Source of the DNA: Lentisphaerota bacterium | Lineage (GTDB): Bacteria > Verrucomicrobiota > Kiritimatiellia > JAAZAB01 | NCBI GenBank assembly: GCA_016188985.1 | Contig: JACPGM010000053.1 | Span: 4,290-68,289 of the forward strand | DNA: 64,000 nt | Direction: 5' to 3' | Shown here: positions 2,699 to 53,390 of the stretch, piece after piece | How positions within the stretch are numbered: the stretch's first letter is position 1 | Layout of the letters: every line of letters starts with the position of its first letter | Position numbers and translations under genes: made by a program | Notes under the pieces: model-generated | What the model was told of the DNA's origin: nothing | The model's database searches: none | The model's input: only the letters and a program-made list of their open reading frames with translations

Positions 2699-3664
2699 AT
2701 GAATACTTCTGAAGTCCTTCTGGCCGTGGATAACTTAAGCGTCTTTTTCCGGACGCGGTCTGAGCCGATTCGGGCAGTGAATGGCGCATCGTTCAACATT
2801 GCATCGGGCGAGACCGTTGCGCTGGTCGGCGAGAGCGGCTGCGGCAAGAGCGTGACTGCCCTGGCGCTGACGCGCCTGGTGGCCGAGCCCGGCTACGTGG
2901 CCGGCGGCCGGATCCGGTTTGGCGGGCGCGACGTGCTGGCCATGGAACAGCGGCAGTTGCGCGATCTGCGCGGCGCGGAAATCGCTTATATCTTCCAGGA
3001 ACCGGCCGCCGCGCTTAATCCCGTATTCCGGGTTGGCTGGCAGATAGCGGAGTCTTTGCGTCTCCATCGCCGCGACATTGCGGTTCGCCAGGAAGTAATC
3101 CATCTGCTGAACCGGGTGGGCTTGAGCGATCCCGAGCATCGGCGCCGGGCCTATCCCCACGAGCTTAGTGGCGGCATGCAACAGCGCGTAATGATTGCCA
3201 TGGCCCTGGCTTGCCGGCCGCGCCTGCTGGTGGCCGATGAGCCTACTACCGCCCTGGATGTCACCATCCAGGCGCAAATTCTCGATCTGCTGACGCGCCT
3301 GCAGGGCGAACTGGGCATGGCGATCTTGCTGATTACCCACAATCTGGCGCTGGTGGCCGGCATTGCCCGGCGGGTCAACGTCATGTATGCCGGCCGGGTC
3401 GTGGAGTGGGGCTTGGCCGAAGACATTCTGCTGCAGCCGGCGCATCCTTATACCCGCGGACTTATGGCCGCCGTGCCGCGCTTAAGCGGGGGGACAACCC
3501 GCATGGCCGGAATTCCGGGCGCCGTGCCCAACCCCGCCCGGCTACCTTCGGGATGTCCCTTCCATCCGCGTTGCCCGAAAGCCCAGGCCCGTTGCTCCGT
3601 TGAAGATCCGTGTGATGAAAACATAACCGCGGAACATGGTGTCCGATGCCACTTCTGGAAATAG
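2699..3664 (+). CDS. oligopeptide/dipeptide ABC transporter ATP-binding protein (OppD/DppD-like)
   Basis: Walker A GESGCGKS, signature LSGGMQQR, Walker [14 protein letters not shown]-terminal Opp-type extension with CPFHPRCP motif. Start chosen at ATG 2699 (MNTSEVLL…) rather than the ORF-track upstream extension. Confidence 0.85.
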
Positions 3665-4632
3665 CCGATTTACAGGTCTCCTTCAAATCAGGCCGCCGCC
3701 AGGAAGTGCGCGCGGTTGACGGTGTCTCGCTGGCGGTGGCCTCGGGCGAAAGCGTCGGCCTGGTGGGCGAGAGCGGCTGCGGCAAGAGCACGCTGGGCAA
3801 CACCATCTTGCGCCTGGTGCCGGCCTGCTCCGGCCAAATCCGGTTCGAAAACCAGGATGTCCTGGCGCTTGGCTGCGGCGATCTGTTCCGCTACCGCCGC
3901 CGCGCCCAGATGATTTTTCAAGACCCCTACGGCTCGCTCAACCCGCGCCTGACAATCGGCGCAGCAATTGAAGAATGCCTGGCGGTGCACCGGCTGGGCA
4001 ACCGGCTGGAACGCCGCGAGCGGGTGCGCCACCTGCTGGAGACCGTTGGACTCGAATCGGATTACGCCGCGCGATATCCCCACGAGTTCAGTGGCGGGCA
4101 ACGCCAGCGCGTGGGCATTGCCCGGGCCCTGGCGCTTGATCCAGTCTTCATCGTAGCCGATGAGCCGGTCTCGGCGCTGGATGTTTCGGTGCAAGCGCAA
4201 ATCCTGAACTTGCTTAAAGATCTCCAGCTCTCGCGCAACCTGGCCTATCTCTTCATTGCTCATGACCTTTCCGTGGTGCGCTATATGTGCAGCCGGGTGC
4301 TGGTCATGTATTTCGGCCGGATCGTCGAGGCGGCGGATGCCGCCGAGCTTTTTGCGCATCCGGCGCATCCTTATACCCGGACGCTGCTGGCCGCCGTGCC
4401 GGATATTGAGAGAGGATTGCGCGCCGCGCGCGCGCGCTCAGCGGTCGCGCAAGGCGAAGTACCCAGCGTCAGCACTGCGGTAGAAGGTTGTTCCTTCCAT
4501 CCCCGTTGCCCCTATGCCGAGGAGATCTGCCGAGAGCAGACGCCGAAAGACCACGAGGTCAGCCCGGGCCATACCAGCCGTTGCCATTTCGCCGGGACAA
4601 TAAGATTGCATCGGGGCATGATATCTCAGTAA
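3646..4632 (+). CDS. oligopeptide/dipeptide ABC transporter ATP-binding protein (OppF/DppF-like)
   Basis: Walker [10 protein letters not shown], signature FSGGQRQR, Walker B FIVADEPVSALD, C-terminal CSFHPRCPYAEEIC motif. Overlaps the upstream ATPase gene by ~19 nt (operon). Confidence 0.85.
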   Translation: MPLLEIADLQVSFKSGRRQEVRAVDGVSLAVASGESVGLVGESGCGKSTLGNTILRLVPACSGQIRFENQDVLALGCGDLFRYRRRAQMIFQDPYGSLNPRLTIGAAIEECLAVHRLGNRLERRERVRHLLETVGLESDYAARYPHEFSGGQRQRVGIARALALDPVFIVADEPVSALDVSVQAQILNLLKDLQLSRNLAYLFIAHDLSVVRYMCSRVLVMYFGRIVEAADAAELFAHPAHPYTRTLLAAVPDIERGLRAARARSAVAQGEVPSVSTAVEGCSFHPRCPYAEEICREQTPKDHEVSPGHTSRCHFAGTIRLHRGMISQ

Positions 4633-4717
4633 CAACGCTTAAAAGCAAGAAGTTGCTGCTTACCACAGAGACACAGAGATGGCATTGAATAAGAATGCGT
4701 ATTAAGGATCTGTTCGC

Positions 4718-6052
4718 ATGACGAATTCCGACAAGTATGTGCCGAGGCCGGGATGGCACGGTTGGGCGGCGCGGGTCCGGTGCTTTCCGCTCCTGCTGGC
4801 TGCGCCGTTTCTCTGCGGGTTCGCCGGACCGAGCCAAGCCCTGCACGGCGCGGATGTCGCGTTATACAACGACTCGACCGCGCCATATTACAATGGCGCA
4901 TGGCAGGACGGTTTGACGGCCATCCGCAACATGCTGGCGACCATCGGGCTATCTTATGAGGAAATTAATTACTGGGACCTGGACACGTCCTTCCAGGATT
5001 TTTCCAGCCTGTACAAGATCATCTTGATGCCCGGCGGATACGCTCCTTATTACAATTACTGGATCAACCGGACCGGCAAGGACCGCATCCGTGCGTTTGT
5101 CCAATCCGGTGGCGCGTACTTCGGGATCTGCGCCGGAGCCTATTTCGCGTGCGATACCGTGACCTGGGGCGACACGGTGTATGACGACGATGCCGGTTAT
5201 GACCTGGACCTATTCCCGGGTTCCGCCATGGGCGACATAGGCAGCATCGCCGACTACTACGCCGGCAACTGGACCATGACGACGTTAAACTTCACCGCGG
5301 CCAACAGTATTCTCCGCCGGTATAAGACGGTCCCGTACACCGAAGATCTTATTTTTCTCGGTGGGCCCAGTTTCGTTGGTTACGAGCAATACCCTGTCAC
5401 GGTTCTCGCATCGTTCGCCAGCCACGGTCGGCCAGGGATCGTCGCGTTCCCATACGGGTCCGGCCGGGTGATTCTGTCGGGGCCACACCCGGAAATCGAG
5501 GAGGACTCCGCCCGTGACGGTGTTACCCTGTCTGGGGAAGACCAACTTGACGACCGGGGTTCGGATTGGGACTTCACGCTGCACCTGGTTGTCTGGTTGG
5601 CCTACCCCCAGTCCAACCCGATCATGGATATTCCGATGGGGCAGACCACCTTCGCTTATACCCCCGTGGTTACCCCGTCCCGTAGCGCCATTCCAGCGGA
5701 TGCCCGGCCGGTCGGTCTGGGTCCGGTCGCCACCAACGGCAACGAACTGGCCATCTCCATCTCGCTCTACCAGTTCATGACGCCGGTAGACATGTATTTC
5801 GGTTATTCCGCCGCGGATGATCCGGCGACCATTCACATTCTACGGCCGGACGGCGCATTGCAACCCATGGCCGAAGGTCTGATCCCGTTTCAGGCAAGCG
5901 TTCTGGACCCGGTGGCGGTTTCGTTCGGCGGAGGAATTCCGATTGCGGCCATCCGGCCTGGCACATACACCCTGTATTTCGCGGCCGCCCCAGCGGGCCG
6001 GACCGATGCCTACTACCTCTGGACCACAACGCTAACAATCCCGGGTTCGTAA
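4718..6052 (+). CDS. secreted protein with BPL_N-like (class I glutamine-amidotransferase-like fold) domain, function unknown
   Basis: N-terminal signal-like hydrophobic segment (…CFPLLLAAPFLCGFAGPSQA). Motif …GGAYFGICAGAYFACD… resembles the nucleophile-elbow region of BPL_N/DJ-1-like folds. No experimental analog recognised. Confidence 0.4.
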   Translation: MTNSDKYVPRPGWHGWAARVRCFPLLLAAPFLCGFAGPSQALHGADVALYNDSTAPYYNGAWQDGLTAIRNMLATIGLSYEEINYWDLDTSFQDFSSLYKIILMPGGYAPYYNYWINRTGKDRIRAFVQSGGAYFGICAGAYFACDTVTWGDTVYDDDAGYDLDLFPGSAMGDIGSIADYYAGNWTMTTLNFTAANSILRRYKTVPYTEDLIFLGGPSFVGYEQYPVTVLASFASHGRPGIVAFPYGSGRVILSGPHPEIEEDSARDGVTLSGEDQLDDRGSDWDFTLHLVVWLAYPQSNPIMDIPMGQTTFAYTPVVTPSRSAIPADARPVGLGPVATNGNELAISISLYQFMTPVDMYFGYSAADDPATIHILRPDGALQPMAEGLIPFQASVLDPVAVSFGGGIPIAAIRPGTYTLYFAAAPAGRTDAYYLWTTTLTIPGS

Positions 6053-47921: not shown

Positions 47922-48824
47922 ATGCGCTTATTCGTCCGCAAGAAATATACGGCCATCAAGGTCCAGAAAAAGGATTTGCCCAGCGGCTTGTGGGTAAAAT
48001 GCCAGGACTGCAACGAAATTGCCTATAAGCATGAAATAGATGCGCTCCAGGGTGTTTGCCCGAAATGCGGGTTTCATTTTCAGATTTTGCCTCAGGAGCG
48101 GCTCGCGCAGATGGTTGAAACAGGCTCATTCCAGGAATGGGATGCCGACCTGGTAAGCGCGGACCCGTTGGAATTCAACGGCCAGGTTTCTTATGTAGCC
48201 AAGTTGGCGGAGAACCGCCGGAAAGGCCCGCTCAAGGAGGCGGTCCTCTGCGGCCAGGGGCGCATGGGGCCGTTCACGGTGGCGCTGGGCATCATGGATT
48301 TCAATTTTCTGGGCGGCAGTATGGGCTCGGTGGTTGGCGAAAAAATCACCCGGCTGTTTGAGCGCGCCACCCGGCAACGTCTGGGGATCATCGTGGTCTG
48401 CGCCACGGGCGGCGCTCGGATGTACGAGGGGCTCTTCAGTCTGATGCAGATGGCCAAAACCAGCGCCGCCGTGGCGGCCCACGCCCAGGCCGCGCTGCCC
48501 TTCATTTCGGTATTGACCCATCCCTCCATGGCCGGGGTTATGGCCAGTTTTGCCACGCTGGGCGATGTCATCATTGCCGAGCCGAAGGCCCTCATCGGCT
48601 TTGCCGGCCCGCGGGTGATCAAGGAAACAACCCGCGAAGATATCCCCAAAGGATTTCAACGGTCGGAGTTTGTCCTCAAACATGGTCTTATTGATATGAT
48701 TGTTCCGCGCAAGGACTTGACCAGCACCCTGATCCGTCTGCTGGGTTACATGCTGCCCTTGGTAGAAGAAAAAGCAAACATTCAACATCCAACTCCGAAC
48801 AGCACAAGTCCAAACCAAGGATAG
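47922..48824 (+). CDS. accD: acetyl-CoA carboxylase carboxyltransferase subunit beta
   Basis: N-terminal zinc ribbon (CQDCNE…CPKCGFHF) and carboxyltransferase domain (…FNFLGGSMGSVVGEKI…). Confidence 0.9.
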   Translation: MRLFVRKKYTAIKVQKKDLPSGLWVKCQDCNEIAYKHEIDALQGVCPKCGFHFQILPQERLAQMVETGSFQEWDADLVSADPLEFNGQVSYVAKLAENRRKGPLKEAVLCGQGRMGPFTVALGIMDFNFLGGSMGSVVGEKITRLFERATRQRLGIIVVCATGGARMYEGLFSLMQMAKTSAAVAAHAQAALPFISVLTHPSMAGVMASFATLGDVIIAEPKALIGFAGPRVIKETTREDIPKGFQRSEFVLKHGLIDMIVPRKDLTSTLIRLLGYMLPLVEEKANIQHPTPNSTSPNQG

Positions 48825-49006
48825 AGTTCAGTGCTGGTCGCGGCGCGCCAGCTGTCGTCAAGCGATTATGTCCGGTACAACAGTCGACACCCTTTCCACA
48901 ATACAAACTATTTTTCGAGTTTTTCTTATTGTTTGCTACACGGCAGTATCACATCCTGCCGTTTGAAGTGTTGATTAATATCATGTTGGACAGCAGGAAG
49001 TAACCG

Positions 49007-49561
49007 ATGGTTTGGAGTAATCAACAGAATATTCGCTCGCGATCGTTCACTTGCGGCTACTGTGGCAACGTTGTCGCGTCCGGTGTTGGCTTTCTTCACC
49101 ACAATGACCTGGACAAACGCGTACACATCTGCCCACATTGTGATGAGCCGTCGTACATCACAAGCAAGAAGCAGGTTCCGGGTGTTGCGCCTGGCAATGA
49201 GATAGCGGCCCTTCCCGACGACATCGAGGCCCTTTACAAGGAGGCGCGCAACAGCGTCGCTGCGTCCGCCCACACAGGCGCCGTGCTGTTGTGCCGCAAG
49301 ATACTGATGAACACTGCGGTCTCGCAAGGTGCGCCTCAGAATCAGTCATTCCTCGACTATGTTCAGTACCTGGCCGATAACGGATATGTCCCACCAAAGG
49401 GCAAGGGCTGGGTAGACCATATCCGGAAGAAGGGAAACGAGGCTACACACGAGATCAAAGCCATGGGCAAGACCGACTCAGAGGAGCTCATTCTCTTTGT
49501 TGAGATGCTGTTGAAGTTCATTTATGAGTTTCCGAGTAAGATTCCTGCGAACAAGCCATGA
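49007..49561 (+). CDS. zinc-ribbon + DUF4145 domain protein
   Basis: N-terminal CGYCGN…CPHCDE zinc ribbon. C-terminal region (…EALYKEARNSVAASAHTGAVLLCRKIL…IRKKGNEATHEI…) fits DUF4145. Convergent with the Dam-like methylase. Confidence 0.5.
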   Translation: MVWSNQQNIRSRSFTCGYCGNVVASGVGFLHHNDLDKRVHICPHCDEPSYITSKKQVPGVAPGNEIAALPDDIEALYKEARNSVAASAHTGAVLLCRKILMNTAVSQGAPQNQSFLDYVQYLADNGYVPPKGKGWVDHIRKKGNEATHEIKAMGKTDSEELILFVEMLLKFIYEFPSKIPANKP

Positions 49562-49630
49562 CCTGCTGCCTAACAACGGCTTGCAGCGGAGGCCGCCGCG
49601 GCAGAAACCGTGTCGAGTAAGGCCGGAGGA

Positions 49631-50569
49631 TCAATATGTGAGGAGGAGGCGATCATGGACGACCTCATCCTCAAGCGATTCGCCCTCTCTCTGAAAACGC
49701 CGCAGCATGCTTCTGCCGCAATCCAAGAACACTTCTCGCTCAAATAGACCGTCCGGGATTCCCAGTTTACAGTCCACGCGACCGGATTTCTTTTTGCCGT
49801 CAATACTTAGGGCAACCCGAACACCGCGTGTCTTGCAGTAGGCAATGGCGCGCATCAACCGCTGCAAAGAGAAGTCTTGCCCCCGGTACAAGATTGCCTG
49901 ACTACAGACATAGGGCGGGTCGCAGTACACAAGATCTCTCTCCTTGGCCAGAGACATAGCCTCTTCAAAGTCCATCTGCCGGAAGTCCGCCCCTGCCGTC
50001 CGCCGCAGCCATATGTCAACACGCTGCGCGAATGATCCCGGCGCGATAGGGTCGTGAATGCCGCATGGCGTCGAAATGTACCCATCGCTCTTGCGAAACC
50101 GGACAACCCCTCCGTAGCAACTCCGGCAAATGAACAAGAGATCAGGGCCATTCGGCTTGGCGTTGTAGTTTGCCTTTATCTGCTCGTATCCAGCCGGTTT
50201 GCCTAATTCTCGGAATTCGGTGTACCGACTTCTGTACCACTCCGCGAGTTGGTTGGGGGAATCGTGAAGACACCGCCAAATCTCCATGAGCGGGCCGCAG
50301 ATATCGGAACCCACGGCAGCCGGAGGCTGAAGTGCTGCAAGAACGGCCCCACTTCCCAGGAACGGCTCCCGATATGTGTGAATGTCTGTCGGGAAAAACG
50401 ACGCTATCTTGTGAGCAAACCGTTGCTTGTTCCCTATCCACTTTAGAAGCTGGGTCTTGAACGGAGCCACGTGCTGGAACTCAGTTCCGTAGAACAGATC
50501 GAGAGTATCTTCTTCTTTGACTTTCATGACGTGCCTACAATATCCCGATTTGGGATTATTGTCAACCAT
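49631..50569 (-). CDS. DNA adenine methyltransferase (Dam/D12 class, N6-adenine)
   Basis: Motif I-like …LLKWIGNKQRFAHKIASFF…YREPFLGSGAVL… and motif IV YCDPPY. Alternative start at MKVKEED (50527). Confidence 0.8.
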   Translation of the reverse strand: MVDNNPKSGYCRHVMKVKEEDTLDLFYGTEFQHVAPFKTQLLKWIGNKQRFAHKIASFFPTDIHTYREPFLGSGAVLAALQPPAAVGSDICGPLMEIWRCLHDSPNQLAEWYRSRYTEFRELGKPAGYEQIKANYNAKPNGPDLLFICRSCYGGVVRFRKSDGYISTPCGIHDPIAPGSFAQRVDIWLRRTAGADFRQMDFEEAMSLAKERDLVYCDPPYVCSQAILYRGQDFSLQRLMRAIAYCKTRGVRVALSIDGKKKSGRVDCKLGIPDGLFEREVFLDCGRSMLRRFQREGESLEDEVVHDRLLLTY

Positions 50570-50586
50570 ATTATATACTCCCTCAC

Positions 50587-50832
50587 GTGAAACACAACAG
50601 GTATGCGGCTAACGAGGAACATCTGCGGAGCTTGCTCCGGCAGAAACGAATACAGTGTGGCTTGACACAGGCCGCACTGGCGATTGTTCTTCGGAAACCC
50701 CAGTCCTTCGTAAGCAAGTACGAATCAGGGGAACGGCTTCTGTCGTTTGTCGAAACCATCGACGTCTGCCGAGCGCTGAACATCGACCCACGAACACTTC
50801 TCAAGGAGTATCTGCCACATCATGATGCCTGA
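50587..50832 (+). CDS. XRE-family HTH transcriptional regulator (RM controller C-protein candidate)
   Basis: 81 aa; HTH …LRQKRIQCGLTQAALAIVLRKPQSFVSKYESGER… Divergent from the methylase gene; overlaps the start of the downstream candidate endonuclease by 11 nt. Confidence 0.6.
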   Translation: MKHNRYAANEEHLRSLLRQKRIQCGLTQAALAIVLRKPQSFVSKYESGERLLSFVETIDVCRALNIDPRTLLKEYLPHHDA

Positions 50833-51655
50833 CAAGAGATTTGTTGGCCTGCCGAAGCGGTTTTGGGCACTTGTCCGCCTGAGCGGACAGGAGTGCGGTT
50901 ATGCGAGTCAAGGCCAGATTACCATCCCAACGCGAGAAGCCGTGGCAGATGCCCTCACAACATTGGGACTGGTGCCCTCTGCCCTGGACACGCCTTTGCG
51001 GGGTGGTGGCACATGGAAGACACTCCTCGATTACTTCACGTTTCGGCGGGACCTGCTCCACCAGCATGTGGAACCCAACCTCATGGACGCTCCGCAGGCC
51101 AAGAAGGAGTTCGCCCGCCTCAAGCGCGAGTTGAAGCCGAGATGCCCGCTTCCTATGAACAAGCAGAAGGGGACAAAGAGGGCTCCCGCGTACCTGACTG
51201 GTATCGTAAACATGCTGATCGAGGCGAACGCTGCAGGCAAGCCGTGCGACTACGATCCGCGTGCGCTTACCACGGTTGCGGTCAACAGCGCGCCATTGCG
51301 CACTTTTGCACGCCGCATGGATGGCGCTTTTCCTTCTGTCATCAACCCAATCGCCGTGTGGGAAGTGAAAGAGTACTACTACACCACGACCTTCGGCAGC
51401 CGCGTAGCAGACGGTGTCTACGAGACGCTGCTCGACGGAATGGAGATCGAAGAACTCGTAGTGTCTGAGAAAGTTAACGTCCTTCACTACCTCATGATCG
51501 ACGCACGGTACACATGGTGGGACTGCGGGAAGTCGTACCTCTGCCGGGTGATCGACATGCTCCACATGGGCTACGTCGATGAAGTCCTTGTCGGCCGGGA
51601 AGTCCTCGCGCGTCTGCCAGTTCTTGTGAAGAAATGGACACGGAAGATGGCCTAA
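50822..51655 (+). CDS. putative type II restriction endonuclease (PD-(D/E)xK; DpnII/MboI-size)
   Basis: 277 aa; candidate catalytic motif …PIAVWEVKEYYYTTTFGSRVADGVYE… (E-x-K). Genomic context: Dam-like methylase + C-protein. Family assignment not verified. Confidence 0.4.
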   Translation: MMPDKRFVGLPKRFWALVRLSGQECGYASQGQITIPTREAVADALTTLGLVPSALDTPLRGGGTWKTLLDYFTFRRDLLHQHVEPNLMDAPQAKKEFARLKRELKPRCPLPMNKQKGTKRAPAYLTGIVNMLIEANAAGKPCDYDPRALTTVAVNSAPLRTFARRMDGAFPSVINPIAVWEVKEYYYTTTFGSRVADGVYETLLDGMEIEELVVSEKVNVLHYLMIDARYTWWDCGKSYLCRVIDMLHMGYVDEVLVGREVLARLPVLVKKWTRKMA

Positions 51656-51746
51656 CCAGCGCCTCAACCTTACGTTTTTACCTGGGCGGCAAAAACGACA
51701 GTGAGGCGTAACGATTAGCTGTTTACTTCTCCCCGTCTTTAAGAGC

Positions 51747-53063
51747 ATGACCAGCTTATCAGACTCGCTTTCCCGCCTGTATCGGCTGCATGCCGCCGGC
51801 ATCAAGTTGGGCCTGGATACCGAACGGGCACTGCTGGAGCTGTTGGGCCATCCGGAGCAAGGGCTGCGCTTTGTCCATGTGGCGGGCACTAACGGCAAGG
51901 GCTCGGTCTGCAGCATGCTGGAAGCGGTGCTGCGTTGTTCCGGGCTGAAAACCGGCCTCTATACCTCGCCGCATCTGGTGCGGTTCAATGAGCGCATCCG
52001 GATCAATGGGCAATGCATCGCGGACGAGGCGCTGGATAGACTCATCACGGAGGTTGAGCAACAGGCCCGGGCGCTGACCGCTCGGCCGGGAAGCACGGAA
52101 ATCACCTTCTTCGAGTTCACTACCGCTCTGGCCTTTGAGTGTTTCCGGCGGGAAAATGTTGAGATCGTTGTCCTGGAGACGGGCATGGGCGGGCGGCTTG
52201 ATGCCACCAACGTCATCACCCCGCTGGTTTCTGTTATCACCGGAGTTAGTCTTGAGCATACCGACTATCTCGGCAAAGACCTGAGCGCCATTGCCCTGGA
52301 AAAGGCGGGCATTATCAAGCCGGGCGTGCCGGTTGTCATTGGCGCGCTGACGGAAGAAATTCTGCCGGTTATCCAAAGCCTGGCCCGCGAGCGGCACGCC
52401 CGCCTGGTTCAGGCTGGTGAAGTCGTTTCGGTCCGGCGCAAATCGCAAAACCTCGATGGCCAACGCTGCCGGGTGGAATCGGCCGGCGCTTCGTATGGCG
52501 AGCTCTTTTGCCCGTTGCTCGGCCGGCATCAGCTTGAAAACCTGGGCGTGGCCGTGGCCGTCTTGGAAATCCTGAGGGATGAGTACGGACTGCCGGTGAC
52601 GGAACGAGCAGTGAAGGAGGGCATAAAGCGTGTGCGCTGGCCGGGCCGCTGCCAGGTGCTGGCGAATGAGCCCTTGACGGTCCTGGATGGCGCCCATAAT
52701 CCCGAAGGCGCGCGGATTCTGAACCAGGCATTGCGCGAATTGGCCGGGAATAAGCCTTGGGGACTGGTGCTGGGCATGTGCGCGGACAAGGACGTGAATG
52801 GTTTTTTGCGCGCTTTCAAGGGCAGAATCAAGCGCGTATGGACTGTGCCGCTTAATACTGAGCGCAACTTGTCGCCTGCCGCTATCGCCAAGCGGGCAGG
52901 CATATTGGGGTGCCCGGTCAAAACCGCTGCCGTTTCAGAGGCATTACGCGAGGCTGCGGCCTGGGCCAAAGACAATGGTGGCGTAGTCTGTATTACCGGC
53001 TCGCTCTACCTGGTGGGCGAAGTTCTAGAAAAGCGCGGCGCGATTGATCACCTCTTTGAATAA
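51747..53063 (+). CDS. folC: bifunctional folylpolyglutamate synthase / dihydrofolate synthase
   Basis: Mur-ligase-family P-loop VHVAGTNGKGS; 438 aa FolC architecture. Confidence 0.9.
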   Translation: MTSLSDSLSRLYRLHAAGIKLGLDTERALLELLGHPEQGLRFVHVAGTNGKGSVCSMLEAVLRCSGLKTGLYTSPHLVRFNERIRINGQCIADEALDRLITEVEQQARALTARPGSTEITFFEFTTALAFECFRRENVEIVVLETGMGGRLDATNVITPLVSVITGVSLEHTDYLGKDLSAIALEKAGIIKPGVPVVIGALTEEILPVIQSLARERHARLVQAGEVVSVRRKSQNLDGQRCRVESAGASYGELFCPLLGRHQLENLGVAVAVLEILRDEYGLPVTERAVKEGIKRVRWPGRCQVLANEPLTVLDGAHNPEGARILNQALRELAGNKPWGLVLGMCADKDVNGFLRAFKGRIKRVWTVPLNTERNLSPAAIAKRAGILGCPVKTAAVSEALREAAAWAKDNGGVVCITGSLYLVGEVLEKRGAIDHLFE

Positions 53064-53292: not shown

Positions 53293-53376
53293 CGCCGGGG
53301 TGGCGAAATGGCAGACGCGCCGGACTCAAAATCCGGTGGTGGCAACACCATGAGGGTTCAAGTCCCTCCTCCGGCA
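53293..53376 (+). tRNA. tRNA-Leu (anticodon CAA)
   Basis: Cloverleaf: acceptor gccgggg/ctccggc (one G-U pair), D-arm tggcgaaatggcagacgc, anticodon stem-loop gccggaCTCAAAAtccggt (anticodon CAA), long variable arm ggtggcaacaccatgag, T-arm gaggGTTCAAGTccctc, discriminator A; CCA not encoded. Confidence 0.85.
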
Positions 53377-53390
53377 CTATTTATTATTGC

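Follow-up and report, generated by a model that had tools for sequence, protein, structure and literature searches.

The restriction-modification (R-M) systems with which the locus described here can best be compared are those of the commercial enzyme BclI and of BmeTI. In a tblastn search its restriction endonuclease (R) was matched in plasmid pBcl1 of [Bacillus] caldolyticus NEB414, the source strain of BclI, where a methylase gene (M) on the minus strand is followed by helix-turn-helix (HTH) and R genes on the plus strand, and where the HTH gene encodes C.BclI (PDB 2b5a, 1.2e-46). The region upstream of C.BclI on this plasmid carries the published C-box blocks TCACTT/AGACTT (PMC2094064), and M.BclI methylates TGATCA (PMC5805893). 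In GenBank R.BclI itself is labelled 'hypothetical protein'. BmeTI, encoded on pBM69 of Bacillus methanolicus, is a near-identical isoschizomer of BclI: it agrees with R.BclI at 89% of positions, and TGATCA is its site as well. DpnII and MboI also combine a D12-class methylase with an endonuclease of about 280 aa and are, to our knowledge, without a C protein. The controller C.Esp1396I regulates both R and M. [quoted passage not shown] (2009, PMC2632904), a single strong palindrome is located upstream of the controller gene, with a weaker copy downstream of it. With regard to the fourth gene considered below, RAZR (formerly PD-T7-4) is a ring-activated zinc-finger RNase of E. coli UMB1727 (Nature 2026, PMC13017515; PDB 9y9c), an abortive-infection HEPN RNase which works as a single gene and which in E. 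coli is triggered by ring-shaped phage proteins (PMC13017515).

In the present study a stretch of 64,000 nucleotides from the genome of a Lentisphaerota bacterium (contig JACPGM010000053.1, positions 4,290 to 68,289), hereafter the window, was analyzed with regard to an insertion between accD and folC (Table 1). The greater part of this insertion is very probably an intact, horizontally acquired, C-protein-controlled type IIP R-M cassette of the BclI family, with the same gene order as in pBcl1.

Table 1. Positions of genes and predicted control elements in the window.
Feature	Position	Strand	Description	Basis
accD	47922-48824		flanking gene
Insertion	48825..51746	.	2.9 kb, between accD and folC; carries RAZR-like gene and R-M cassette
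RAZR (PD-T7-4)-like gene	49007..49561	+	single-gene defence protein, 184 aa	Pfam DUF4145 6e-10; PADLOC PD-T7-4 1.8e-9
Methyltransferase gene	49631..50527	-	alpha-class (D12) N6-adenine DNA methyltransferase, M.BclI homologue, 298 aa	Pfam PF02086, PADLOC, pBcl1 alignment
Methylase promoter	50537..50565	-	sigma-70-like, TTGACA-17-TATTGT	promoter scan, 10/12 matches
Operator O1	50540..50558	.	ATATCCCGATTTGGGATTA; family consensus ATATCC-N7-GGATAT	predicted C-dimer binding site
C-R operon promoter	50550..50579	+	sigma-70-like, TTGGGA-18-TATACT	promoter scan, 9/12 matches
O2	50568..50586	.	degenerate remnant of proximal operator; window reads ATATTATATACTCCCTCAC	5/12 consensus positions
Controller (C) gene	50587..50832	+	XRE-family HTH protein, 81 aa, GTG start	Pfam HTH_3 3e-9
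Endonuclease gene	50822..51655	+	type IIP, R.BclI homologue, 277 aa	Pfam DUF7690+DUF7687, PADLOC, pBcl1 alignment
folC	51747-53063		flanking gene

Limits and surroundings of the cassette

Similarity to other R-M cassettes at the DNA level (blastn) is confined to positions 49623-51660, which are the cassette ends, and of 80 related loci, which come from many phyla, 78 keep the triad of M, C and R, so that the arrangement recurs more often than by chance. The four open reading frames are present in the ORF list of the window at the positions given in the sequence-only reading, and the layout described there, a methylase on the minus strand and, divergently, an XRE-type HTH gene overlapping a 277-aa ORF by 11 nt, was confirmed. 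Its claim of a C-protein-controlled type II R-M system is borne out too; the HTH gene lies directly upstream of R and in the same orientation in 78 of the 80 loci.

In the loci with accD relatives, accD and folC were found to be immediate neighbours in 16 of 51 cases (gap of 3-232 bp); as no accD relative in the metagenome collection exceeds 59% identity, this speaks for a general accD-folC adjacency only. An empty insertion site was not found in close host relatives within this collection (accD again at most 59% identical), and a search for direct repeats, target-site duplications and terminal repeats flanking the insertion returned only short matches at chance level. Horizontal acquisition had earlier been proposed on account of a lower GC content, and GC does amount to 54.6% in the interval between accD and folC, the average for the window being 57.5%, but this is a weak sign, as 12% of equal-sized windows are equal or lower.

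Endonuclease, methylase and recognition sequence

That the 277-aa ORF encodes a restriction endonuclease, as had been suspected, is supported by its match to the PADLOC model REase_II PDLC03423 at 7e-61, a model which R.BclI matches at 3.6e-206, and by 42% identity with the R ORF of pBcl1 over the full length (residues 1-270 of 277, E=1e-74); both proteins have the Pfam domains DUF7690 and DUF7687 in common. The E-V-K motif to which attention had been drawn (in AVWEVKEYYY) proved to be part of the family-invariant set D167...E181-x-K183, which together with E134 is unchanged throughout a 69-sequence alignment. In an AF2 model computed from a deeper alignment (pLDDT 95.3) D167 precedes strand 168-170, the ExK residues lie in strand 178-184 and helix 193-216 follows, so that alignment and model together place D...(D/E)xK on neighbouring beta strands with a helix after them, the arrangement of a PD-(D/E)XK motif; a first model from a shallow alignment (pLDDT 80) had displayed an ill-defined core and given no useful Foldseek matches. 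The protein is probably a PD-(D/E)XK enzyme using the candidate site E134/D167/E181/K183. Its top Foldseek matches, BstEII, BsoBI, XPF, XisH, PspGI, EcoT38I and Mus81, are PD-(D/E)XK nucleases, none of them significant (best BstEII, E=0.018; no PDB match at E<=0.001). No match was obtained in PDB sequence searches with the endonuclease alone or with the 69-sequence profile, and a literature search on DUF7687/DUF7690 returned no result.

The methylase ORF spans 49631-50569 and matches the Pfam family MethyltransfD12 (PF02086) at 4e-23. Its start is most likely the ATG at 50527 rather than the end of the ORF, since the alignments to relatives begin there and gene calling done independently on an identical contig likewise yields 298 aa. 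With the pBcl1 methylase, M.BclI, it shares 48% identity (E=9e-92), and PADLOC MTase_II PDLC03290 (1e-64) is the top model for both enzymes. The order of its motifs, FLGSG near the N-terminus and DPPY towards the C-terminus, fits FxGxG, TRD, DPPY. Segment 148-177, which would correspond to the DNA-recognition hairpin of Dam-family enzymes, agrees with M.BclI at 67% of positions, against 48% for the whole protein.

By homology the best-supported specificity is likely the 6-bp site TGATCA, as in BclI and BmeTI; the methylase would most likely methylate its adenine (m6A) and the endonuclease would most likely cut the site where it is unmethylated, with T^GATCA as the cleavage expected of a BclI-type enzyme. 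The GATC specificity initially assumed thus survives as the core of this site, whereas TGATCA is better supported than bare GATC through the BclI homology, although an identity of 42% does not guarantee the same recognition site. Neither TGATCA (25 observed, 24.3 expected) nor GATC (297 observed, 301 expected) is avoided in the window. For TGATCA the observed/expected ratio is 0.63 in flanks pooled from loci that carry the R-M system and 0.86 in controls; GGATCC, AGATCT and CGATCG are depleted as much in the same flanks, and with all four NGATCN palindromes affected the depletion is non-specific.

Two other readings of the enzyme pair have to be weighed against this. A GATC-specific system like DpnII or MboI, with the methylase as an orthologue of Dam, could appeal to the D12 class of the methylase, of which M.DpnII (5.9e-12) and E. 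coli Dam are the best PDB relatives, to the similar size of the endonuclease and to the GATC within the BclI site. Of the Dam-like methylase in the sequence-only reading, the DPPY motif and the minus-strand position hold; its score on the NCBIfam Dam model TIGR00571, however, is 101.4 bits and remains below the cut-off of 114.85, and it reaches 216.7 bits on the M.BclI-type model PDLC03290 against 110.6 on PDLC03294, the next MTase_II model of the same length. The endonuclease, for which a DpnII/MboI-like nature had also been proposed, has no Pfam DpnII domain (PF04556) at E<=0.1 and belongs to the DUF7690+DUF7687 family like R.BclI, to which the DpnII/MboI endonucleases are unrelated. As GATC is moreover unavoided in the window, this reading was rejected as highly improbable; a GATC core is probably all the same shared with DpnII and MboI, within a site of probably 6 bp. 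Less remote, but still unlikely, is a BclI-family system of diverged specificity, in which the fold and layout are kept and the site of the Gram-negative/PVC clade is one other than TGATCA. Members of this clade are 57-88% identical to one another and about 40% identical to BclI, a divergence at which type II endonucleases and methylases can change specificity, and both the frequency of TGATCA in the window and the depletion of all four palindromes in the pooled flanks would fit such a change. On the other hand, both enzymes are homologous to their BclI counterparts over the full length, the recognition segment predicted in the methylase is better conserved than the protein as a whole, and a recently acquired cassette is expected to be without site avoidance in its host. 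A different site in this clade is regarded as a further possibility beside the preferred TGATCA.

Predicted operator and divergent promoters

The C protein, with the recognition helix PQSFVSKYESGER, matches the PADLOC model Control_protein at 9.6e-8, and its similarity to characterised C proteins is weak: C.AhdI was matched at 1.8e-5 and C.BclI at 5e-4 (29% identity), while the best PDB match was the uncharacterised XRE protein 3f6w. Like the C.EcoRV- and C.EcoO109I-type controllers and C.Esp1396I it is a small XRE HTH protein that would be co-transcribed with R. It differs from the situation in pBcl1 in that C and R overlap, in that the intergenic region between methylase and C measures 59 bp instead of about 130 bp, and in that the genes are carried by a Lentisphaerae chromosome and not by a plasmid of the Bacillaceae.

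Within these 59 bp two overlapping promoters were predicted by a scan with a sigma-70-like consensus, which may not hold for a Lentisphaerae host. The methylase ATG follows its -10 element after 9 nt and the GTG of C follows that of the C-R promoter after 7 nt, so that the methylase mRNA is predicted to be leaderless or nearly so and the C-R transcript to be leaderless. The motif TTGAC (GTCAA on the plus strand) is conserved beside the operator in related loci, and close relatives have TATATT/TATAAT at the position of the window's C-R -10 element.

A C-box palindrome had been expected at 50560-50600; a conserved operator was indeed found, but at 50540-50558. This site, O1, is placed within the spacer and -10 element of the methylase promoter, and the -35 element of the C-R promoter shares bases with it. 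Of 78 related loci, 76 have a site that agrees with its consensus at 9 or more of the 12 positions, 63 of 102 operator sites end 26-31 nt ahead of the C start codon, and the 37 exact matches among 190 loci all fall within the M-C intergenic region. Variants of the half-site co-vary with the recognition helix of C. The operator is unlike the four-block AGACTT/TCACTT C-box of BclI, which was not found upstream of the window's C gene and which among the related loci occurs only in L001 and L002, and on the written descriptions given by Sorokin et al. (2009) it could not be assigned to a published C-box class. As in the C.EcoRV- and C.EcoO109I-type classes, the upstream palindrome is strong, with a weaker copy nearer the start in the relatives of the window. 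It differs from these classes and from C.Esp1396I in that a single site would serve both divergent promoters and in that O2 is degenerate; the predicted placement of the methylase promoter under C control as well is a likeness to C.Esp1396I.

Among the closest relatives O2 is preserved; it directly adjoins the start codon of C and has the -10 element inside it. Such a site, at a distance of 0-1 nt from the start and with at least 9 of 12 positions matched, is present in L004-L010, L012, L014, L022, L023 and L052, and two operator sites occur in 25 of 78 relatives, including nearly all of the closest, against the 5 positions left in the proximal site of the window. Many more distant members of the family are also without an obvious O2.

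From this arrangement the following course of regulation can be proposed. The C protein would be made from the transcript of R, the two genes overlapping by 11 nt, and its dimer would bind the palindrome O1. Since O1 lies in the spacer and -10 element from which the methylase would be transcribed, binding of C would lower methylase expression; since the centre of O1 is about 38 bp ahead of the C start, binding would probably also raise transcription of C and R. In a newly entered cell the methylase would then appear first and the nuclease later, which is the usual order. In close relatives O2, covering the C-R -10 element, would mediate autorepression, and it is this element which is degenerate in the window. 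Since C is only weakly similar to known controllers and the operator is unlike the C-box of C.BclI, the direction of regulation proposed here is an extrapolation from the position of the site only. It may tentatively be suggested, as one possibility rather than the expected one, that the Gram-negative/PVC clade (more than 6,800 protein clusters) has an undescribed controller lineage and operator class, in which one palindrome, ATATCC-N7-GGATAT, within a bidirectional, leaderless control region of 59 bp represses the M promoter and activates C-R, and that the copy in the window has lost the proximal, autorepressing O2.

The RAZR-like neighbour and the integrity of the cassette

The gene next to the methylase encodes a protein which, like RAZR, would consist of an N-terminal Cys4 zinc ribbon (C16, C19, C42 and C45, in the form CxxC...CxxC), a linker and a DUF4145/HEPN-like domain with R-x7-H, here R140-x7-H148; the four cysteines, R140 and H148 are invariant in 29 homologues. 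The PADLOC match to PD-T7-4 extends over residues 8-172, against profile positions 8-177 of 211, and in the match to PDB 9y9c (E=5.8e-4) R140/H148 align to R146/H154 of RAZR. Both are single genes in variable, defence-rich neighbourhoods. The window protein is shorter (184 aa against 219 aa) and the similarity, as seen in the value for the PDB chain, is low. Judged by its sequence, the gene is a separate defence gene of the RAZR/PD-T7-4 type and not part of the R-M system, as no homologue is present in any of the 80 loci to which the cassette is related.

The opposite view, in which the DUF4145 protein belongs to a single four-gene unit as accessory or specificity partner, was rejected and is the least probable of the alternatives; the sequence-only reading had counted the gene with the locus because such proteins often accompany restriction genes. 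Only 69 bp separate the DUF4145 and methylase genes, the same four-gene order was encountered on an independent contig of the same study, and DUF4145 domains are also known from the N-termini of type I HsdR proteins, to which the window protein has a weak NCBIfam match; but besides its absence from the related loci the gene lies outside the DNA homology block, which stops at 49623, its homologues are found in unrelated neighbourhoods, and RAZR, the nearest of its characterised relatives, works on its own. Improbable, if less so, is a decaying or silenced remnant in which the ORFs are intact and the cassette is unexpressed or misregulated. The degenerate O2, by which the window differs from nearly all closest relatives, and the GTG start of C on a putatively leaderless mRNA could lead to altered or weak expression, and a host without TGATCA avoidance would agree with silence. 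Yet R retains all its family-invariant residues, M its FxGxG and DPPY motifs and C its recognition helix, O1 and both promoter-like sites are intact, and O2 is often missing in more distant members of the family, too. The preferred reading thus remains that of an intact BclI-family cassette beside an independent RAZR-like gene.

As an R-M system the cassette is ordinary and its general significance small. Its comparison with BclI nevertheless allows DUF7687/DUF7690, and with them thousands of homologues annotated as 'hypothetical protein', to be read as the BclI restriction endonuclease family, and on sequence grounds the neighbouring DUF4145 gene may be annotated as a defence gene of the RAZR type. 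With the conserved ATATCC-N7-GGATAT operator, the study of R-M regulation gains a compact and testable case in which one site would control two divergent, predicted leaderless promoters. For the Lentisphaerota genome, assembled from a metagenome, the insertion would represent a small defence islet of two systems, placed within the conserved pair of accD and folC.

Genes of the accD-folC interval

The window stems from a Lentisphaerae MAG, for which a 100% identical protein is on record. The four ORFs of the sequence-only reading (DUF4145, methylase, HTH and 277 aa) were present as described, with Pfam support for DUF4145, MethyltransfD12 and HTH_3, and an identical contig with all four genes was found in a Logan assembly. 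Since the methylase is called there as 298 aa and alignments of its relatives begin at the ATG at 50527, the gene was taken as 49631-50527. The HTH gene and the 277-aa ORF overlap by 11 nt.

Features of the locus and its flanks (window positions)
Feature	Position	Strand	Details
accD, flanking gene	47922-48824
Zinc-ribbon/DUF4145 ORF	49007-49561	+	Pfam DUF4145 6e-10
D12-class methyltransferase ORF (M)	49631-50569	-	Pfam MethyltransfD12 4e-23
Putative methylase promoter (sigma-70-like)		-	TTGACA-17-TATTGT; methylase ATG 9 nt past -10 element
O1, predicted C-protein operator	50540-50558		ATATCCCGATTTGGGATTA; between and over the two promoters
Putative C-R promoter (sigma-70-like)		+	TTGGGA-18-TATACT; C GTG 7 nt past -10 element
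O2, proximal operator copy	50568-50586
XRE HTH ORF (C)	50587-50832	+	81 aa, GTG start; Pfam HTH_3 3e-9
277-aa ORF (R)	50822-51655	+	contains AVWEVKEYYY; Pfam DUF7690+DUF7687 2.6e-82
Imperfect long hairpin	51661-51708		CGCCTCA...CGTTTTT...AAAAACG...TGAGGCG
folC, flanking gene	51747-53063
tRNA-Leu(CAA) gene	53294-53377

Downstream sequence was sufficient in 51 accD-relative metagenome loci, and in 16 of these folC is the immediate neighbour of accD, 3-232 bp away; the full sample of 80 accD-relative loci lacks the island genes. The 2.9 kb that separate the two genes in the window are therefore an insertion, around which no flanking repeats were found. The lower GC content claimed for the region holds weakly: it is 54.6% vs 57.5%, and 12% of equal-sized windows are as low or lower. 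The hairpin between the R stop and folC lies directly beyond the end of cassette homology; it may act as a terminator or be what is left of the junction formed on insertion. The tRNA gene directly downstream of folC lies about 1.6 kb from the insertion.

The DUF4145 protein, previously regarded as a companion of the restriction-modification (R-M) system, matched PADLOC PD-T7-4 (1.8e-9 over residues 8-172). PD-T7-4 is now called RAZR, a zinc finger joined to a DUF4145/HEPN RNase with R146 and H154 as catalytic residues; it assembles around phage proteins of ring shape, and infection is aborted (PMC13017515). In the comparison with RAZR chain 9y9c (E=5.8e-4) R140 and H148 fall on these two residues, and 29 homologues all retain C16, C19, C42, C45, R140 and H148. 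The 3,444 homologues of the protein stand in unrelated, often defence-type neighbourhoods, and none was present in the 80 R-M loci. Similarity to RAZR, unrelated neighbourhoods and this absence argue against a companion and for a separate gene, which lies in the same insertion as the R-M cassette yet, judged by its sequence, is a putative independent RAZR-like defence gene. Between accD and folC, cassette and RAZR-like gene make up an inserted defence islet of 2.9 kb.

Identity and specificity of the R-M system

The cassette is an intact, C-controlled type IIP R-M system of the BclI family. In PADLOC, the 277-aa protein matched PDLC03423, a REase_II model, over its full length (7e-61), while the methylase matched MTase_II PDLC03290 (1e-64) and the HTH protein Control_protein (9.6e-8). 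Searches of plasmids with tblastn yielded REase homologues on pBcl1 ([Bacillus] caldolyticus NEB414), pBM69 (B. methanolicus) and pGA2 (C. glutamicum), which share the order ‘DNA adenine methylase’ (-), ‘HTH regulator’ (+) and ‘hypothetical protein’ (+). BclI comes from strain NEB414, which has a single type II alpha methylase, an enzyme acting on TGATCA (PMC5805893). The HTH protein of pBcl1 is C.BclI itself (PDB 2b5a, 1.2e-46), preceded by the TCACTT/AGACTT blocks of the published C.BclI C-box (PMC2094064). The 285-aa ORF of this plasmid matches PDLC03423 along its full length (681 bits, 285/285 positions) and is therefore R.BclI, to which the pBM69 homologue, the experimentally supported TGATCA enzyme BmeTI, is 89% identical. 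Identity of the window proteins to those of BclI amounts to 42% for R (1e-74), 48% for M (9e-92) and 29% for C. A DpnII/MboI-like system, as originally proposed, was rejected because of this homology of R and M to the BclI pair, the lack of any DpnII-family match to the 277-aa protein in the Pfam search and a methylase score under the NCBIfam Dam cut-off.

In GenBank, RefSeq and UniRef, R.BclI, a commercial enzyme (4001-4858 of the pBcl1 locus L001; protein P0121), bears no other name than ‘hypothetical protein’ or ‘DUF7687 domain-containing protein’; Pfam DUF7690 and DUF7687 therefore represent the BclI endonuclease family.

No sequence relative of the 277-aa REase was found in the PDB. E134, D167, E181 and K183 are, among others, invariant in a 69-sequence alignment of both clades, and the AlphaFold2 model from this alignment (pLDDT 95.3, pTM 0.91) places D167 before strand 168-170 and E181-x-K183 in the next strand (178-184), followed by a long helix and a further strand, which in the model is the order of the PD-(D/E)XK pattern. 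Foldseek top hits were nearly all PD-(D/E)XK nucleases (BstEII, E=0.018; BsoBI, XPF, XisH, PspGI, EcoT38I, Mus81), none of them significant, and this fold is likely rather than proven.

The GATC specificity suggested before stands in so far as GATC is contained in TGATCA, the likely recognition site by homology; a bare-GATC (DpnII/MboI-type) system was not borne out, the system being BclI-type. Segment 148-177 of the methylase, presumably its DNA-recognition hairpin by analogy with Dam-family enzymes, shares 67% identity with M.BclI vs 48% overall, and this higher conservation supports a presumably conserved specificity. Neither TGATCA (25 observed vs 24.3 expected) nor GATC (297 vs 301) is avoided in the window. 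In pooled carrier loci O/E of TGATCA is 0.63 (0.65 without the cassette) vs 0.86 in accD control loci, and other NGATCN palindromes are as depleted. Scarce in the window against Markov expectation were CAGCTG (1 observed, 12.4 expected), CTCGAG (2, 12.2), CTAG (6, 59.9) and GTAC (60, 116.6), which may reflect other host R-M systems, past or present; CAGCTG is the most depleted 6-mer also in pooled related loci.

Distribution of the cassette

Among the candidates scored, the REase family comprised 6,829 clusters at E<=1e-3. When one genome per species was scanned, no fewer than 591 relatives emerged; the 80 best (57-84% identity) belong to Lentisphaerota, Verrucomicrobiota, Planctomycetota, Proteobacteria, Acidobacteriota, Spirochaetia, Bacteroidota, Chloroflexota and others; 15 IMG/VR viral contigs carry relatives of R as well. 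Methylase and HTH gene precede R in the same arrangement in 78 of these 80 loci, the remaining two ending at the contig edge. Nucleotide homology of the window to all 80 is limited to 49623-51660, from M stop to R stop, and hence the mobile unit is the bare 2 kb M-C-R cassette. A Kiritimatiellia locus (L013, 4241-5766) shows a methylase-C gap of ~1.5 kb vs the usual ~57 bp, which suggests an insertion in the control region. In two Anaerolineales MAGs (L057 and L074, ~3400-4700) folC lies directly beside the methylase gene of the cassette in opposite orientation, a second, independent cassette-folC association.

Control region and operators

The 59 bp between the start codons of M and C hold two of only three sigma-70-like sites in 3.15 kb. 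In 76 of 78 loci a site agrees with the consensus ATATCC-N7-GGATAT at 9 or more of 12 positions, and for 63 of the 102 sites with such scores the distance from the end of the site to the C start codon is 26-31 nt. Exact matches (37 in 190 loci, four viral loci among them) all lie in the M-C intergenic region, and the 80 accD control loci contain none. Half-site variants follow the recognition helix of C: ATATTCC/GGAATAT pairs with ...SQSFVSKYE.G.L, TATAC/GTATA with ...PQPFVSKYERGER. Family conservation, position and these helix-linked variants support O1 as the predicted C-protein operator.

Bound at O1, which falls on the spacer and the -10 element of the methylase promoter, C would repress M, as reported for C.BclI (PMC2094064); with O1 centred ~38 bp before the C start, on a putatively leaderless transcript, it would also activate C-R. 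We infer both directions (M down, C-R up) from the position of O1. The operator differs from the C-box type of C.BclI and C.AhdI. In architecture, one strong palindrome and a weaker downstream copy, it resembles the palindromic classes of Sorokin et al. (PMC2632904), to none of which its sequence could be matched from the text of the paper.

Two exact operators, offset by 15 bp and with the middle half-site in common, occur in L045 (5714-5747) and L073 (5713-5746), where the second covers GTCAAG, the -35 of the methylase promoter; the two-site layout of the window's close relatives is unlike this. With two mismatches the pattern recurs in the window at 934, 23060, 26196, 41251 and 45463 (six in total vs 1.3 expected); no R-M gene is recognisable beside any of the five, which are probably due to chance.

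Nearly all closest relatives possess a second copy, TATCC-TATATT-GGATA, abutting the C start codon and enclosing the -10 element, which is presumably autorepressing. The corresponding 19-mer of the window, O2, agrees with the consensus at 5 of 12 positions vs 9-12 in these relatives, and its right half-site is altered by a five-substitution block (GGATT to CCTCA). Mildly new, and nothing else is so, are the controller/operator lineage of this large clade and the fact that the copy in the window has lost its proximal operator.
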